A stretch of 64,000 nucleotides of DNA from Eubacteriales bacterium (lineage in GTDB: Bacteria > Bacillota > Clostridia > Oscillospirales > QAKW01): NCBI GenBank assembly GCA_045541555.1, contig JAZQJH010000059.1, forward strand, positions 16,641 to 80,640, in the 5' to 3' direction. Positions 6,599-46,433 of the stretch are shown one piece after another. Made by a program: the position numbers and the translations under genes. Below the pieces are notes generated by a model that worked only from the letters and a program-made list of their open reading frames with translations, had not been told where the DNA came from and searched no databases. The first letter of the stretch is position 1. Every line of letters starts with the position of its first letter.

Positions 6599-7717
6599 AT
6601 GGTAATTGGATTAATGGGCTTCGGTACTGTAGGCGCCGGTGTATATGAGTTGGCAAAGGGGCAGAAGGATCTTGAGATCCGCTATGTCCTGGATCTCCGA
6701 GAGATCGGGATCCCGGAGCTGACCCACCGGGCAGAGGATCTTTGGGAAGATGCCGAAGTAGATACCGTAATTGAAGTATTGGGCGGTCTGCATCCGGCTT
6801 ACGAGTTTGTTTCGGCGGCTCTTCGGGCGGGAAAAAACGTGGTGACTGCCAATAAATATCTGGTAGCAAGCTACTATGACGAACTGTTGGCGCTGGCCAA
6901 GGAGCATGGCTCCACCTTCCGTTGCACCGCCGCAGTAGGCGGCGGCATCGGCTGGCTGACCGCCTTGGAGCGTGTCCGCCGTCTGGAGCCGGTGCTGGCG
7001 GTAGAGGGTATCATGAATGGTACCACCAATTATATTCTGACCAATATGACCGAAAATGGGCTTTCTTTTGATACTGCCCTTTCCGAGGCGCAGGCTCTGG
7101 GCTATGCGGAGGCAGATCCCTCGGCCGATATCGACGGCAAGGACATTATGCACAAGCTTCTCCTATCCGCCAACGTAGCTTTCGATCTCTCCCTCAAGGT
7201 GGAGGAGATCCCCGTATGGGGCATCCGGCATATTACCGACGGTGATATCTGCGCCTTCAAGGAGCACGGTCTCACCTGTAAGATCCTGGGCAAAGCACGC
7301 CGGGACGGCAATCGCATCGCCGCTTACGTAGTTCCTATGGCGCTGCCTCAGTCGCTGACCGCCGCAGTCCCCACCAACTTCAATCTCATCACCTATGAGA
7401 CGGAGTATACCGGAAAAATGAGTTTCTACGGCCAGGGTGCCGGTCGCTATCCCACCGCCGCCAACGTGGTGCAGGATTGCCTGGATATGGTGGCCGGGAA
7501 AGACGCGTTCTATGCGGACGCTTTCGATCCCGCTCCCCTCTCCAATGAGATCGTCTCTTACCGGTTCTATCTCCGCTCCAAAGCGGCGTTGCCGGAGGGC
7601 GAGCGTTGGGGCGCGGGCATTGTGACCGCGCCGATGACTGTCAGCGAGATGGCGGCTCTTTATGCAAAATTAAAAACCGAGGACGAAGCAACCTTCGTAG
7701 CGGCGATCGGAGAATAA
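6599..7717 (+). CDS. hom: homoserine dehydrogenase
   Basis: The track ORF is trimmed to MVIGLMGFGTVGAGV (NAD-binding motif), preceded by AGGAGC. It shows GIMNGTTNYIL and LGYAEADPSADIDGKD motifs. Confidence 0.9.
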   Translation: MVIGLMGFGTVGAGVYELAKGQKDLEIRYVLDLREIGIPELTHRAEDLWEDAEVDTVIEVLGGLHPAYEFVSAALRAGKNVVTANKYLVASYYDELLALAKEHGSTFRCTAAVGGGIGWLTALERVRRLEPVLAVEGIMNGTTNYILTNMTENGLSFDTALSEAQALGYAEADPSADIDGKDIMHKLLLSANVAFDLSLKVEEIPVWGIRHITDGDICAFKEHGLTCKILGKARRDGNRIAAYVVPMALPQSLTAAVPTNFNLITYETEYTGKMSFYGQGAGRYPTAANVVQDCLDMVAGKDAFYADAFDPAPLSNEIVSYRFYLRSKAALPEGERWGAGIVTAPMTVSEMAALYAKLKTEDEATFVAAIGE

Positions 7718-23347: not shown

Positions 23348-24220
23348 ATGATCATCTGTAATCCAACCGCCACACTTGCCGAAAAATACGGCGAAGAAAA
23401 AGCCCTGGAAATGCTCAAAGCCGCCGGATTTGATGCGGCAGATCTTTCCCTCACCTGCATGGAAGAAGCCGCGGACTGCCATTGGCATGGCGCGGACTAT
23501 AAAGAAAAGGCGTCCGCACTACGCGCCTTTTCCGAGCGGATCGGGCTCCCCATCCTCCAGGCGCACGCACCCTTTGCTTTTGGAAAAGCAGACCTGGAAG
23601 AAACGGTCATTCCCATCGTTTCCCGCAGTATTGAGATCGCCGCCTTGGCAGGTGCTAAAAAGATCGTCGTCCACCCCCGGAGCATCCTCCCTTACTTTGA
23701 GCATATCGAAGAAAGCTTTGAGGTCAATATGAATTATTACGGGAGCTTAGCTTCCGTGGCCAAGGAATACGGCATCCAGATCTGTCTGGAAAATATGTGG
23801 GCAACCAATAAGCTGCGGGGGTTCATCGACCATTGCGTCTGCTCCCGACCGGAAGAATTCAACCGCTATCTGGATACCCTGCAGAGAAAATACGGTGATT
23901 GCTTCACCGCCTGCCTGGATCTGGGTCATATCGTTTTGGTGGGTCAGGATCCGGTCGAAATGATCCGCACCATGGGCGATCGGATCACCGCCCTGCATAT
24001 TCACGATAATGACTACAAAAAGGATCTCCATACCCTCCCCGGCCACGCCCGGATGGATATGGCTTCCATCTTTAAGGCATTGCATGAGATCGGCTATCAG
24101 GGAATATTTACCTTAGAGGCAGACAACTTTTTCTGCAGGCAAGCCCCCGAGCTCTGGCCTCTATCGCTGAAATATATGGCGGAGGTCAGCCGGTACTACA
24201 GTAAAATAACAGAGCAATAA
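23348..24220 (+). CDS. sugar phosphate isomerase/epimerase (xylose-isomerase-like TIM barrel)
   Basis: 290 aa with the family pattern (IVVHP..., ICLENM, LDLGH, HIHDN). An AGGAGC RBS precedes it. Confidence 0.8.
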   Translation: MIICNPTATLAEKYGEEKALEMLKAAGFDAADLSLTCMEEAADCHWHGADYKEKASALRAFSERIGLPILQAHAPFAFGKADLEETVIPIVSRSIEIAALAGAKKIVVHPRSILPYFEHIEESFEVNMNYYGSLASVAKEYGIQICLENMWATNKLRGFIDHCVCSRPEEFNRYLDTLQRKYGDCFTACLDLGHIVLVGQDPVEMIRTMGDRITALHIHDNDYKKDLHTLPGHARMDMASIFKALHEIGYQGIFTLEADNFFCRQAPELWPLSLKYMAEVSRYYSKITEQ

Positions 24221-24258
24221 AAACGTGCGAGATGCTGAAGCATCTCGCACGTTTTTTT
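24221..24258 (+). terminator. intrinsic terminator
   Basis: AAACGTGCGAGATGC, loop TGAA, GCATCTCGCACGTTTTTTT. Confidence 0.85.
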
Positions 24259-24264
24259 AGAATT

Positions 24265-24394
24265 TCAAAAAAGTCCCCGAAAGATCCAAAAAGATCTTGC
24301 CGCTTTCGCGGTATAACGGTGAGAAAGAGATTTTACTCTTTCTCTTTTCTTCTTTATAAGGGAAAAATCCGCATGAAAATGCGGATTTTGATTA
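24265..24394 (+). repeat. intergenic repeat element, copy A (second copy at 40542-40684)
   Basis: Blocks shared with copy B: TCAAAAAAGTCCCCGA; the hairpin (G/A)AGAAAGAG..CTCTTTCTC plus a T-rich run; and TTTATAAGG(G)AAAAATCCGCATGAAAATGCGGATTTT(G/A)ATTA. It starts 6 nt after a terminator. Its last hairpin serves as the hisJ terminator. Confidence 0.8.
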
Positions 24395-25195
24395 GATTTT
24401 TATATACTCCCTTCCATGCAACGTCAACGTCACCATTCGTTCAAAGCCGGCGGCTTTGATCTGCGCCAATGCCTGATCAAAACCATAGCCCATAGCTTTC
24501 TCATCGTGGCAATCGCCGGAAAGAATGACCTCTCCGCCCTGCTCCCGGATATATTGCAGCAGCCAAGGGCTGGGATACGGCGTCGTACGGACGCCGCGGC
24601 TCATAGCACCGGTATTGACCTCAAAAAGTGCCCCCATCGGCAAAAGCGCACGCACCGCTTCTGCGGCCGCCGCCCGGTACCGGGGGTGGTCTTCATCATA
24701 GAGCCTCTTTTGCTCCTGATACTTGGTCAAAAGGTCCAGATGACCGATGATATCGCAGGGTGACAACCGCGCCACGTGGGCAAAATAATCCTCCGCAAAG
24801 GCGTAAGGATCTCCGCCGTAGCATTCCGCGATCGCCTTTTCCTGCAAAGCCAGTCCGTCATCCATCTTGCAATCCACGCCCCGGGGATGCAGCTCGTGCA
24901 CCGAGCCGATGAGATAATCATATTCATCCGTCGGATCCTTGGAATAATAGTCCTGCTCGATACCGCAAAGGATCTCGATCTTGCCCCGGTACTCCTCCTG
25001 CAGGGCACGGATCGCTGCCCGATAAGCAGCCGCACCGCCCTCTTTTAAACAATAACCGAACTGGGTCGCGACATAGGAATGGTCGGAAAAACCGAGATGG
25101 GTATAGCCGCACGCCAAGGCGGCAAGCACCATTTCTTCCGGCGTATTTTCACCGTCGCTGAAAACGGTATGGATATGAAAGTCCCCTTTAATCAT
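24392..25195 (-). CDS. hisJ: histidinol-phosphatase, PHP (HisJ) family
   Basis: 267 aa. It shows the DFHIHT PHP motif and is the last gene of the his operon. Confidence 0.85.
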
Positions 25196-38974: not shown

Positions 38975-40210
38975 TTACTTACAATATTCTTGATAAATGG
39001 ACAAATAGGGATCCCGATCCCGGATAACGCATCCGGGGGTACCGCCGGGCTTACGCATGATTTCGGTACACTTGGAGCAGCAAAGACAAAGCTTGTTTTT
39101 ATCCATTTCGCCGGTAGCTAAGATCTCCTTGGCAAAATCCGGATAGGCAAAGATGGTGCGGCCAAAGCCGGCGAGGTCAAATCTTCCGTCCTTGATATAG
39201 CCGGCCACCACGTGGGGCGCCGCCACACCCAGATAAGAAACGGCAGAGCAAAGGATGGCCATCTCCGGGATGGACGCTTTCAATTGCGCCGTTCCCTCCA
39301 GAACACGCCGAACCCCTTCTAAGGGATGCTCGGGATGCTCATAGCCGCCTTGGGCAAAGGGGCGGTTGACGTGGGGATTGAAATAGGGATTGCCCATGGT
39401 GATATTCAAGAGGCGGACGCCATAGCCGTAAAGCTCCTTGATGAGCCATTCCGGCTCGGTGGGATCAAAGTCCAGCCCCTCTTTCCCTACGCCAAAACCA
39501 TAAGGGTACGGAAAGCCGTCGTAGACGTTCAGCCGAGAGCTGACGATAAAGTCCCTGCCGGTTCGCTGGATGGCACCTTGGATACTCTCCCGCAAAAGGC
39601 GCGTCCGGTTTTCCAAGGAACCGCCGTAACGGCCGGGACGCTCAAAGGCGGAAAGCAATTCTGAATTGAGATAGCGATGGCAGCATTTAATATCCACACC
39701 ATCAAAGCCGGCCTTTTCCGCCAAGGCCGCGCCACGCACCAAGGCATCTCCCACCCGATCCAGATATTCATCGCTGACGATGCGCTCCGACGAGATGGGG
39801 GCATCCTTTTCAAAGATCGGATTGTTATAGGCGATCAAGGGTGCCGGCGTTCCCTCCGGCTTGGAATAGCGTCCGGAATGGGTGGCCTGCATGATCACCA
39901 CCGGCTCATAGCCGTTGGTGCGCAGTCCTGCTTCCTTGATGGCTTCCACCTGGCGCTTAAAATCGTCCAGGTTCTCCTCGGTAATGTACAACTGCCGGGG
40001 ATTGGCGCGCCCCTCTGGCAAGACGGCGGTGGCCTCGAACCAAAGCAGTCCCACACCGCCCTCGGCAACCCTCTGATACCGCCGCTTGGTCAGCGTATCG
40101 GGACTGCCACCGGGGGTGCCGTCACACCCCTCCATGGCTTGCGCCGCCTGCCGAACCCGCTTGCCCTTTTGGAGCAAGAGCAGACGGAGATGATTTTGGA
40201 TCTCCAGCAT
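38975..40210 (-). CDS. Old-Yellow-Enzyme-family NADH:flavin oxidoreductase with a C-terminal Cys cluster
   Basis: It shows GGVGLLWFEATAV, QATHSGR, GFDGVDIKCCHRYL and RYGGSLENR, with C-terminal CLCCSKC...C. The start is uncertain (ATG 40210 or TTG 40225) and lies inside the AraC remnant on the other strand. Confidence 0.75.
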   Translation of the reverse strand: MLEIQNHLRLLLLQKGKRVRQAAQAMEGCDGTPGGSPDTLTKRRYQRVAEGGVGLLWFEATAVLPEGRANPRQLYITEENLDDFKRQVEAIKEAGLRTNGYEPVVIMQATHSGRYSKPEGTPAPLIAYNNPIFEKDAPISSERIVSDEYLDRVGDALVRGAALAEKAGFDGVDIKCCHRYLNSELLSAFERPGRYGGSLENRTRLLRESIQGAIQRTGRDFIVSSRLNVYDGFPYPYGFGVGKEGLDFDPTEPEWLIKELYGYGVRLLNITMGNPYFNPHVNRPFAQGGYEHPEHPLEGVRRVLEGTAQLKASIPEMAILCSAVSYLGVAAPHVVAGYIKDGRFDLAGFGRTIFAYPDFAKEILATGEMDKNKLCLCCSKCTEIMRKPGGTPGCVIRDRDPYLSIYQEYCK

Positions 40211-40501
40211 CGGTTTGCGGAGCAATACGACGACCCTTATACCCTGGAGGCCTTAGCGAAAGAGTATAACGTCAGCCCCTCCTCCCTTTCCCATCGGTTT
40301 AAGGAGGTCACCGGAATGTCGGTAATGGAATATCTTCTTTCCTGCCGACTGGCCGCTGCTAAAAATCTACTGATTGAGACCGATCTCCCTATCGGCGAGA
40401 TCGTGGAGCAATGCGGATTCAGCGACAGCAGCAACTTCAGCCGCACCTTCAAGGCGCGCACCGGGCTTTCCCCGTCGGCTTTTCGCAACCTATATAAATA
40501 G
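40190..40501 (+). pseudogene. AraC-family regulator reduced to its C-terminal HTH domain
   Basis: Only about 104 aa of AraC-like sequence is present (YTLEALAKEYNVSPSSLSHRFKEVTG...GFSDSSNFSRTFKARTGLSPSAFR). The rest of the 274-aa track ORF is antisense to the OYE gene. Confidence 0.65.
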
Positions 40502-40533
40502 AAATACGGAGCAGAAAATCTGCTCCGTATTTT
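40502..40533 (+). repeat. 32-bp direct repeat copy 1 (an intrinsic-terminator hairpin)
   Basis: AAATACGGAGCAGAAAATCTGCTCCGTATTTT, directly after the AraC-remnant stop codon. It is identical to 40822-40853. Confidence 0.9.
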
Positions 40534-40541
40534 ACAGACTG

Positions 40542-40684
40542 TCAAAAAAGTCCCCGACCGCAGAAAAAGAAAAGATCTGAAAGTTTGTACTGATTTTGCA
40601 ATATCACGGCAAGAAAGAGAACCCACTCTTTCTCGTTGTTTTTTTATAAGGAAAAAATCCGCATGAAAATGCGGATTTTAATTA
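40542..40684 (+). repeat. intergenic repeat element, copy B (first copy at 24265-24394)
   Basis: It has the same terminal blocks and hairpins as copy A, with a diverged and slightly longer interior. It starts 8 nt after a terminator. Confidence 0.8.
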
Positions 40685-40821
40685 AAATTTTCTGCTATCC
40701 GCGGGGCCGCTCTCTACCGTACCCATGTACGCCGACGAGATCGGCCCCGCGAATTCGGAAACATTTTTGAGAGTCTACCCAGCGTGTCAAAGATAAAAAA
40801 CAGGGTTCTTGACACGCTGAA

Positions 40822-40853
40822 AAATACGGAGCAGAAAATCTGCTCCGTATTTT
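40822..40853 (+). repeat. 32-bp direct repeat copy 2 (terminator of the P-II-like gene)
   Basis: A perfect copy of 40502-40533 in the same orientation. It abuts the reverse-strand stop codon at 40854. Confidence 0.9.
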
Positions 40854-41537
40854 TTATAAACCCATTACCGAATCGATAGGTAAGGACATAACAACGCCCT
40901 TGGCATCGCTGTGCATTCCGCAATTCTTGCTGATGGCACTCATGATATCGGTCTTTTTCTCATGATCGGCGAGGATCAAGACGATCTCTTTTTCCTCCTG
41001 CACGCTCAAGCCCCAAAAGCTGGTACCCTCCTCACTGCCGATACTGCGGCTATGAAGCACCGTACCGCCGCCGGCACCGGCAGCGCGCGCCGCATCCATA
41101 ACTTCGCTGCTGAAGCCACGGTTTACGATGGCGGAAATCAATACGTATTTCGATGTTCCCATAGACATTTCATCCTTTCCGTTTTTGGCGGAGTCTGTTT
41201 CTTTTGCAGTCTGATCCATCATCCGAAGCAAAAGATTGCTGACACCGGTGAGGGGAATGGTGAATGCGATACCGCTATTGACCGCATCCAGCCGCAGCTC
41301 CGAATGGAGCAGCCCCAGCATGGTCTGCCCGAAGCTTTGGGGCACCGTGCTGACCAGCACGCCTTTATCGATACTTCCAAGTCCCAGCGTATCCATGATC
41401 TCGCTGGAGGCGGTACCTTGCGCATTCAGGCGGTACTGGATGGGCAGAGCACTTTTTAAGAATAACTCTGCCGCCCGATCCGCCAGCTTGGGGGTGGCGA
41501 TCAGCATCAAAAGCTGATAGGTTTTCATTTTATTCAT
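40854..41537 (-). CDS. tandem P-II-like domain protein
   Basis: The start is trimmed to MNKMKTY, 6 nt after GGAGGTGG. It contains two beta-alpha-beta repeats; the second (YVLISAIVNRGFSSEVMDAARAAGAGGGTVLHSRS...EKEIVLIL...GVVMSLPIDSVMG) resembles the P-II family. Confidence 0.6.
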   Translation of the reverse strand: MNKMKTYQLLMLIATPKLADRAAELFLKSALPIQYRLNAQGTASSEIMDTLGLGSIDKGVLVSTVPQSFGQTMLGLLHSELRLDAVNSGIAFTIPLTGVSNLLLRMMDQTAKETDSAKNGKDEMSMGTSKYVLISAIVNRGFSSEVMDAARAAGAGGGTVLHSRSIGSEEGTSFWGLSVQEEKEIVLILADHEKKTDIMSAISKNCGMHSDAKGVVMSLPIDSVMGL

Positions 41538-46359: not shown

Positions 46360-46399
46360 AAAATGGCTGTGAAAAACGTTCGTTTTTGACAGTCTGAAT

Positions 46400-46433
46400 A
46401 ACGCCCGGTCTTATATAGACCGGGCGTTGTTTA
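46400..46433. terminator. intrinsic terminator between convergent genes
   Basis: AACGCCCGGTCT, loop TATAT, AGACCGGGCGTT, then GTTTATT. Confidence 0.7.

Follow-up and report, generated by a model that had tools for sequence, protein, structure and literature searches.

Two intergenic regions in a 64,000-nt stretch of Eubacteriales DNA (contig JAZQJH010000059.1, positions 16,641 to 80,640; the whole stretch is referred to as the window) share a conserved sequence just beyond intrinsic terminators, and the question raised by this locus is whether the resemblance reflects a local duplication, a regulatory RNA or a mobile element. The two similar stretches are one complete copy (copy B, starting at 40534) and one halved copy (copy A, starting at 24259) of a single element of about 286 nt. 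The element family is real, well defined and mobile, and the repeat is in all likelihood a non-autonomous, gene-less DNA transposon (a MITE, short for miniature inverted-repeat transposable element) of about 286 bp, which inserts at terminator palindromes and duplicates the whole hairpin.

The decisive feature, overlooked by an earlier note on this DNA, is a perfect 32-nt direct repeat of the terminator hairpin, AAATACGGAGCAGAAAATCTGCTCCGTATTTT, which brackets copy B at 40502-40533 and 40822-40853 (repeat search, family D6). Besides lying 3' of terminators, the element copies the entire terminator palindrome, which becomes its target-site duplication. The complete copy and its two flanking hairpins are as follows.

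40534-40819, plus strand: copy B, full-length, 286 nt (288 nt counting the ambiguous AA at 40820-40821)
40500-40533, unstranded: left target-site duplication AGAAATACGGAGCAGAAAATCTGCTCCGTATTTT, a bidirectional terminator palindrome 3' of the AraC-family gene, scored as a terminator and single in the empty allele L024
40820-40853, unstranded: right target-site duplication AAAAATACGGAGCAGAAAATCTGCTCCGTATTTT, a repeat of that palindrome (33/34 positions agree with the left copy), which abuts the stop of the P-II-like gene on the minus strand

The limits of copy B are set by the duplicated hairpin on both sides, and exactly the same segment is missing in L024. The flanking 32-nt repeat implies that the conserved sequence reaches about 140 nt past the right boundary drawn in the earlier note. 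The size of 130-145 nt given there is an underestimate for an element of about 286 nt, of which only the left half had been noticed in copy B, copy A being truncated. The start had also been placed too far inward, 6-8 nt after the U-tract; the real start lies 0-1 nt after the T-tract, and a conserved AGACTG (AGAATT in copy A) belongs to the element. The resemblance itself was correctly seen, as sequence counts and alignment confirm that the two loci share a left block, an AG-rich hairpin with different loops and a right block in the same orientation. The left block TCAAAAAAGTCCCCGA is found two times, no more, in the window, with both copies oriented alike, as compared to a chance expectation of about zero, and the right-block hairpin AAAAATCCGCATGAAAATGCGGATTTT likewise shows exactly two occurrences in the same orientation against 0 expected. 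Pairwise alignment of copies A and B gives a column identity of 85% with a 13-nt indel, and the G+C content of copy B is 43% as compared to 52% for the window.

A family scan of one genome per species, using the core of the right-block hairpin as the query, revealed matches on four different contigs of one metagenome-assembled genome (MAG), JAZNVY01 ('Eubacteriales bacterium', SGB_2618). One of the four, L008, is the orthologue of the copy B locus, with flanks 95% identical to the window, and the remaining L004, L005 and L010 are three other, unlinked loci. The full-length identity to copy B is 85-91% for L005, L004 and L010 and 100% for L008 (BLAST and alignment), and the paralogous copies diverge by 9-15%, with indels. 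A unit of about 286 nt is common to all the MAG copies, with ends constant within 1-3 nt; L010 contains in addition a 113-nt internal segment (L010:4107-4219), and its right-block hairpin loop is inverted. All the full copies sit between two copies of a local hairpin, the sequence of which is different at each locus, and the bases before the element vary from site to site. The duplicated sequences are listed below.

L005: ATAAAACTCCCCGGTTGACCGGGGAGTTTTT, 31 nt
L004: GGCTGTGAAAAACG-AA/TT-CGTTTTTCACAGCCT, 31 nt
L010: GGAAGAGTTTCGC-loop-GCGAAACTCTTCCT, 33 nt
Copy B: A(G/A)AAATACGG...CCGTATTTT, 34 nt, of which 32 are exact

The traits of a MITE are found together in this family, namely direct duplications of 31-34 nt that differ across four sites, terminal inverted repeats, multiple unlinked copies (2 in the window and 4 in JAZNVY01) with presence/absence polymorphism, and no transposase gene within the 286-nt element. 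The insertion sites of the full copies and of copy A all lie between convergent open reading frames (ORFs). Reconstructed as single copies, the targets prove to be perfect palindromes bearing A- and T-tracts, as two-way intrinsic terminators do, and as DNA they fold with −13 to −20 kcal/mol (z of −5 to −10). The adjacency to terminators reported earlier is upheld, a different terminator hairpin preceding each copy. A resemblance of the target arms to the inverted repeat of the element (11/14 in L004 and 11/13 in L005, by eye) was considered and rejected as a signal, being suggestive but not significant given the A-tract/GC-stem composition of such sequences.

A local or segmental duplication of the intergenic region, without any mobility, was the null explanation of the earlier note, to be preferred if only two copies and no empty-site alleles existed. 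In its favour, just two copies are visible within the 64-kb window, 16 kb apart and in the same orientation. Neither part of that null holds beyond the window, where JAZNVY01 has three more copies at unlinked loci with differing flanking genes and hairpins, the boundaries of the element are constant, and the L024 allele is empty with a single hairpin. A simple duplication is hardly credible on this evidence, and the same unlinked loci and empty-site allele bear out the suggestion of a dispersed, terminator-associated repeat, which is very probably mobile.

The empty site was found in a Logan contig (L024), which encodes a P-II-like protein 98% identical to that of the window and has a nucleotide identity of about 94% to the window. 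The P-II stop (TAA), a single hairpin and the AraC stop follow one another in direct succession, with no element and no second hairpin, and L024 thus represents the copy B site exactly as it was before insertion, or as precisely restored. At the copy A locus, a syntenic contig of a related species (L022, 83% nucleotide identity) has kept the orthologous terminator hairpin and shows 66 nt of unrelated spacer ahead of the hisJ stop, with no trace of the element.

The comparison of the window with L008 bears on recent activity. The two differ by about 5% over 6 kb (flanks 5.1%), yet the 286 nt of the element are identical; the longest perfect run between them, 309 nt (40516-40824), coincides with the element, and at that divergence 286 nt without a single difference would arise by chance with a probability of about 3e-7. 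An identical element in diverged flanks indicates that it arrived at the B site recently in at least one lineage. Roughly equal distances separate the window, L008 and the empty L024 from one another, and a strain-specific base is common to the two hairpin copies of L008 (AAACGG) and to those of the window (ATACGG). Independent recent insertions into the same hairpin are one possible source of this identity, and another is that the filled allele was recently transferred, the ends of the tract lying in the hairpins.

L025 (ending at 6739), L026 and L027, from related species or strains, end in or just past the terminator 3' of the P-II-like gene, and the tail of L027 holds GACCGCAGAAAAG, which is also present near the left end of the element. 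These ends could be assembly breaks at a repeat in the same position, and such repeats may break metagenomic assemblies at gene ends in general, for which these contigs are suggestive though unproven. In another related species (L033:6150-6600, GCA_045545255.1), a palindrome resembling a terminator, AAAAGCCCTCCCCG...CGGGGAGGGCTTTT, is interrupted by about 400 nt with a hairpin of its own at each end and many ATATCAC/ATATAAC-like repeats; judged by its sequence, this insert looks like a different small element inside a terminator.

The internal organization of the element is best described on copy B, from left to right.

40536-40557, plus strand: left terminal inverted repeat AGACTGTCAAAAAAGTCCCCGA, which includes the left block of the earlier note
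40612-40633, plus strand: AG-rich internal hairpin AGAAAGAG-loop-CTCTTTCT, followed by a T-run; stem near-invariant, loop variable
40654-40679, unstranded: right-block hairpin AAAATCCGCAT-GAAA-ATGCGGATTTT, a two-way terminator-like palindrome with 2 exact occurrences in the window
40700-40751: imperfect GC-rich hairpin
40755-40776, minus strand: internal right inverted repeat TCGGAAACATTTTTGAGAGTCT, which pairs with the left repeat
40780-40819, unstranded: terminal 40-nt palindrome CAGCGTGTCAAAG-loop-CTTGACACGCTG, the right end of the mobile unit

The left repeat matches the reverse complement of its right partner at 18/22 positions in all four full copies, and the pair corresponds to pairs 7-28/331-352 in the pairing and covariation analysis. 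The terminal inverted repeats had earlier been sought between the left block and the right block; the real partner of 40536-40557 is 40755-40776, placed about 45 nt inward from the right end of the element. A 3-nt spacer separates this inner right repeat of copy B from the terminal palindrome, which forms the right end of 4/4 independent full copies and the arms of which resemble the inverted-repeat tip CAGACTGTCAAA (about 11/13, by eye). The loops of the AG-rich hairpin read AACCCA, ATTTTC, AACCTG, TTGCTG and ATTTTA across the copies, and the sole change in its stem is a G-U pair in L010. A TTGACA box points outward at both ends of the element, and on the minus strand a promoter-like TTGACA-16-AAAAAT runs from 40790 to 40763, across the junction of the terminal palindrome and the inner repeat. 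Promoters laid out in a similar way arise at the junctions of abutted ends of insertion sequences (IS).

The same promoter-like sequence, with the right-block terminator about 85-110 nt further on, may also be read as a transcription unit, in which case the repeat would be a small-RNA gene or a terminator/regulatory-RNA module, spread and kept by selection on its transcript, with mobility being incidental. Invariant hairpin stems with variable loops, 286 nt identical in two strains with a flank difference of 5%, and the position of the copy A hairpin exactly at the hisJ stop agree with such a role. The two readings are not exclusive, and a small RNA is compatible with a transposon; as an explanation of the repeat it is nevertheless unlikely, given the absence of an Rfam match, the 9-15% divergence of the paralogous copies with their indels and the 113-nt insertion in L010, and the loss of the promoter-to-terminator region from copy A. 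A promoter across abutted inverted repeats is, moreover, a device by which IS express their own transposase. The earlier note had reasoned that U-tracts occur on the plus strand only and, hence, that the element could be a small terminated transcript. Pattern scanning contradicts this strand bias, since the right-block hairpin is scored as a terminator on the minus strand in copy B and on the plus strand in copy A.

Covariation and family searches also bear on the regulatory-RNA alternative. A double change is seen in just 4/91 predicted pairs among five distinct sequences, and the covariation term is unfavourable, a sample too small to be informative. No curated covariance model of a small-RNA or cis-regulatory family matches the element, as the Rfam scan of the window at the gathering threshold placed no family there, and an E-value scan of 40480-40870 gave nothing near a gathering score, the weak matches being unrelated leaders. 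The only family above threshold in the window was 6S RNA (RF00013, 66.1 bits, full length), at 1864-2057 on the plus strand.

Coding capacity was likewise not retained in the element. Reading frames shift between copies and none is conserved; a plus-strand ORF beginning MKMRILIK and a minus-strand remnant ending in TVESGPADSRKF were rejected as genes, their frames not being kept between copies. The additional segment of L010 contains on its minus strand a good ribosome-binding site (AAAGGAG-N7-ATG) and a 32-aa ORF, MDIADFLRLAEWSGFHCFRRTVESGPTDSRKF, which ends just before the right-block terminator, and from its sequence this ORF may be a start-plus-end remnant of a parental gene. A protein-database search with the ORF padded to 41 aa gave no homologue or candidate parent gene. 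When 10 peptides of spurious ORFs were used as an index of element copies, only the L004 peptide (P0121, a singleton) was found in the protein collection. Exact look-ups of the hisJ and AraC-family proteins of the window returned no record, so the collection does not include this very genome.

No transposase or integrase domain is present in any large ORF of the window, and no reverse transcriptase (RT) or HUH gene occurs there, in agreement with the earlier observation that no transposase is nearby. The plasmid and phage BLAST and the viral-contig scans returned no match to the element, and a JGI metagenome scan with TCAAAAAAGTCCCCGACCGC gave nine loci from soil or marine samples, all of them unrelated and matching by chance. 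Several homologues of the P-II-like protein beside a DUF1538 gene (P0141, P0224 and P0230) are named 'transposase' in NCBI MAG records. The sole Pfam match of the P-II-like protein in the window is P-II, weak and below the cutoff, and the name looks like an annotation error rather than the missing transposase.

From the arrangement of the full copies, we infer that a transposase acting in trans would place the element between convergent genes, at two-way intrinsic terminators that are palindromic, leaving the whole palindrome of 31-34 bp duplicated on either side. The most likely chemistry would be a short-stagger DDE strand transfer at the base of the palindrome extruded as a cruciform, after which gap repair would copy the complete hairpin on each side. 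Cuts 31-34 bp apart would pose no problem of geometry, because both positions adjoin at the junction of a cruciform, and an ordinary 2-3-bp stagger would then give 'palindrome plus a few bases'. Alternatively, the stagger would be fixed at three helical turns. After the insertion, the terminator would be retained by both neighbouring genes and the outward TTGACA boxes of the element would be insulated, which together would render the insertion nearly neutral.

Certain observations weigh against a transposon of this kind. No autonomous partner or transposase was found in the window or in the plasmid, phage and viral-contig collections, and the insertions are few (four independent full ones and one truncated copy). 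The junctions between element and flank are ragged, with 1-3 nt of variation between copies. Duplications of 31, 31, 33 and 34 nt for palindromes of 28-38 nt fit joining at the cruciform base and a fixed stagger of about 32 bp alike. Finally, the stems of the duplicated hairpins are identical but their loops differ at three loci (AA/TT, an inversion, in L004; AAAT/GAGAT in L008; TTTTTT/CTTTG in L010), whereas simple fill-in predicts identical copies. These differences imply either fast loop mutation or error-prone repair of hairpin-forming gaps, and together with the inverted right-block loop of L010 they point to palindrome-associated template switching or to a fast turnover of loops.

Such loops also invite the explanation that the whole arrangement is an accident of host replication or repair at palindromes, for example by template switching at a stalled fork, without a dedicated transposase. 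Palindromes are known hot spots of template switching, the loop is inverted in both the L004 duplication and the right-block hairpin of L010, and for restriction-modification genes there is a description of 'insertion with long target duplication' in which no enzyme is known (PMC2853133). Accidents should, however, capture variable segments, and one 286-nt unit with the same ends (within 1-3 nt) and with inverted repeats is found at no fewer than four sites, that is, at least 4. This origin is considered very unlikely as compared to transposition by a dedicated enzyme.

A stronger proposal is that a structure-specific transposition system is still active in gut Clostridia, with a transposase, possibly not of the IS30 type, that recognizes extruded terminator cruciforms, not sequence, and joins the element at their base; this is put forward tentatively and is at present doubtful. 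If true, a terminator would be restored on either side at each insertion, which amounts to a built-in 'safe harbour' strategy, and the identical 286-nt copies in flanks differing by 5% would represent independent recent insertions at the same hairpin. Transposons that select DNA structure over sequence and copy an entire palindrome are a rarity without a mechanistic explanation, and a short element with clean full, empty and truncated alleles offers material for testing the length of the duplication against that of the palindrome. For annotation, a pair of identical terminators that bracket about 290 nt of 'intergenic' DNA should be taken as a mark of this element and not as a regulatory design, and a terminator such as that now behind hisJ can be second-hand.

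The history of that terminator is recorded in copy A, which lies between a xylose-isomerase-like TIM-barrel gene (plus strand, 23348-24220) and hisJ (minus strand, 24392-25195), a PHP-type histidinol phosphatase gene closing a his operon, with its stop codon at 24392-24394. The features of this copy are as follows.

24219-24258, unstranded: target terminator palindrome beside copy A, 3' of the TIM-barrel gene (DNA fold −20.3 kcal/mol, z = −9.2)
24259 to about 24394, plus strand: copy A, an older, truncated copy comprising the left ~136 nt of the element and ending at the hisJ stop codon
24259-24280: degenerate left repeat (AGAATTTC...)
24321-24344: AG-rich hairpin
24364-24389: right-block hairpin, scored as a terminator on the plus strand only (pattern scan)

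BLAST aligns 24259-24401 with copy B at 75% identity and covers the left 136-143 nt of the element. The target hairpin is present once, with no second copy beside copy A. The simplest history would have three steps, we infer: insertion beside the hairpin at 24219-24258, a deletion that removed the element's right half together with the second hairpin and the spacer before hisJ, and the resulting placement of the internal hairpin 24364-24389 at the hisJ stop. The end point of the deletion would lie within a short similarity, ATTA(A/G)ATTTTT, common to the element and the hisJ end. That the element had supplied the C-terminus of hisJ was rejected, as the 3' coding end is closely similar in L022, where the element is absent; the short similarity beyond the right block is more readily interpreted as the microhomology through which the deletion occurred. 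The earlier proposal that copy A supplies the terminator of hisJ stands as far as position is concerned, since the right-block hairpin directly follows the hisJ stop as expected and reads on the minus strand as a GC stem followed by TTTTT. Its use as the hisJ terminator on the minus strand is plausible from this sequence, the scan having scored it on the plus strand only.

Copy B is flanked by an AraC-family gene (plus strand, ending at 40501) and the P-II-like gene (minus strand, 40854-41537/41570). Upstream of it, about 690 nt of L008 (L008:327-1017) are missing in the window at about 40141-40153, with the junction in a CGCCGCC microhomology. The missing part takes in the divergent promoter region, the 5' end of an Oxidored_FMN gene and, from the AraC-family gene, its N-terminal cupin/AraC_binding portion. 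This loss accounts for two long overlapping ORFs in the window (38975-40225 on the minus strand and 39677-40501 on the plus strand), and both genes are probably inactivated in this genome. A possible stump of a third, inverted copy is seen at 46383-46396 (minus strand), where TTTTTGACAGTCTG is the exact reverse complement of the left tip of the element. It replaces the 3' arm of the terminator 46365-46394 and abuts a different terminator at 46400-46428; in L004, the former terminator is intact and duplicated around a full element, and the synteny between the window and L004 ends at 46392. The stump may be a vestige of such a copy left by deletion or rearrangement.

Comparison with known systems begins with elements that seek hairpins by means of single-strand or structure-specific recombinases, and a relative of IS200/IS605-type elements, REP/RAYT, integron attC cassettes or group IIC intron fragments could explain why the insertions adjoin terminator stem-loops and why the element carries, besides a terminal palindrome of its own, several hairpins in its interior. 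Group IIC introns home just 3' of intrinsic terminator stem-loops and recognize structure, not sequence. They are ribozymes of at least 600 nt, with or without an RT ORF, and insert without target duplication, unlike the 286-nt element with its duplication; the Rfam scans detected no group II intron or other ribozyme family, and no ribozyme domain matched above threshold. IS200/IS605 and REP elements have no duplication, no inverted repeats and a fixed short motif 5' of the insertion, whereas the present element has a long duplication and inverted repeats. With integron cassettes and site-specific integrases, the core left behind is identical at all sites, while the repeat flanking the element is a pre-existing local hairpin, different at each locus. 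With no RT, HUH or integrase gene in the window, descent from this group is highly improbable.

Described MITEs typically have duplications of 2-10 bp and a sequence-based or loose choice of target. A limited literature search found no description of a MITE that duplicates a whole terminator palindrome. According to PMC3184786 and PMC10969869, bacterial MITEs (Correia, RUP, ERIC/IRU, Nezha, MITEAba12 and others) are like the element in being small, multicopy, intergenic and stem-loop-forming, with inverted repeats and no transposase, and they can donate promoters or terminators. SPRITE is likewise a dispersed small repeat tied to termination signals (PMC3184786); it is set apart by its description, being itself terminator-like, whereas the terminators flanking the element are host sequence duplicated on insertion. 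IS1272/TnSha1 (IS1182 family) of staphylococci target hairpins, including terminators confirmed by RNA-seq, with no sequence consensus, and may strike the same hairpin repeatedly; they delete or replace part of the hairpin without target duplication (PMC4923244, PMC5678879), whereas both hairpins of the element are complete.

Targeting that duplicates an inverted repeat is already known but rare, being found in a few Mycoplasma insertion sequences. IS1630 of Mycoplasma fermentans, known since 1999 (Calcutt et al., as cited in PMC3317919), duplicates inverted repeats of 19-26 bp (PMC2853133) or of 16, 23, 25 and 26 bp (PMC3317919), and ISMhom-1 of M. hominis (IS30 family) inserts likewise at the 3' ends of genes, leaving the ORFs intact (PMC7648426). 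Both are like the element in that the target is an inverted repeat or terminator-like structure of variable sequence at gene 3' ends and the whole repeat is duplicated, so that their direct repeats are long and vary between sites. To our knowledge, there is no biochemical study of IS1630. The two IS are autonomous, 1.2-1.4 kb long, with an IS30-type transposase and 27-bp inverted repeats, and belong to Mollicutes, whereas the element has 286 bp, is gene-less and resides in uncultured Clostridia/Eubacteriales; it also has an extra terminal palindrome outside the inner inverted repeat, unlike either of them. The duplications of 31-34 bp exceed the 16-26 bp of IS1630, a difference that is not decisive if the length follows the palindrome. 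The closest precedent for the element is IS1630/ISMhom-1 of the IS30 family: it behaves like IS1630, and it may or may not belong to that family.

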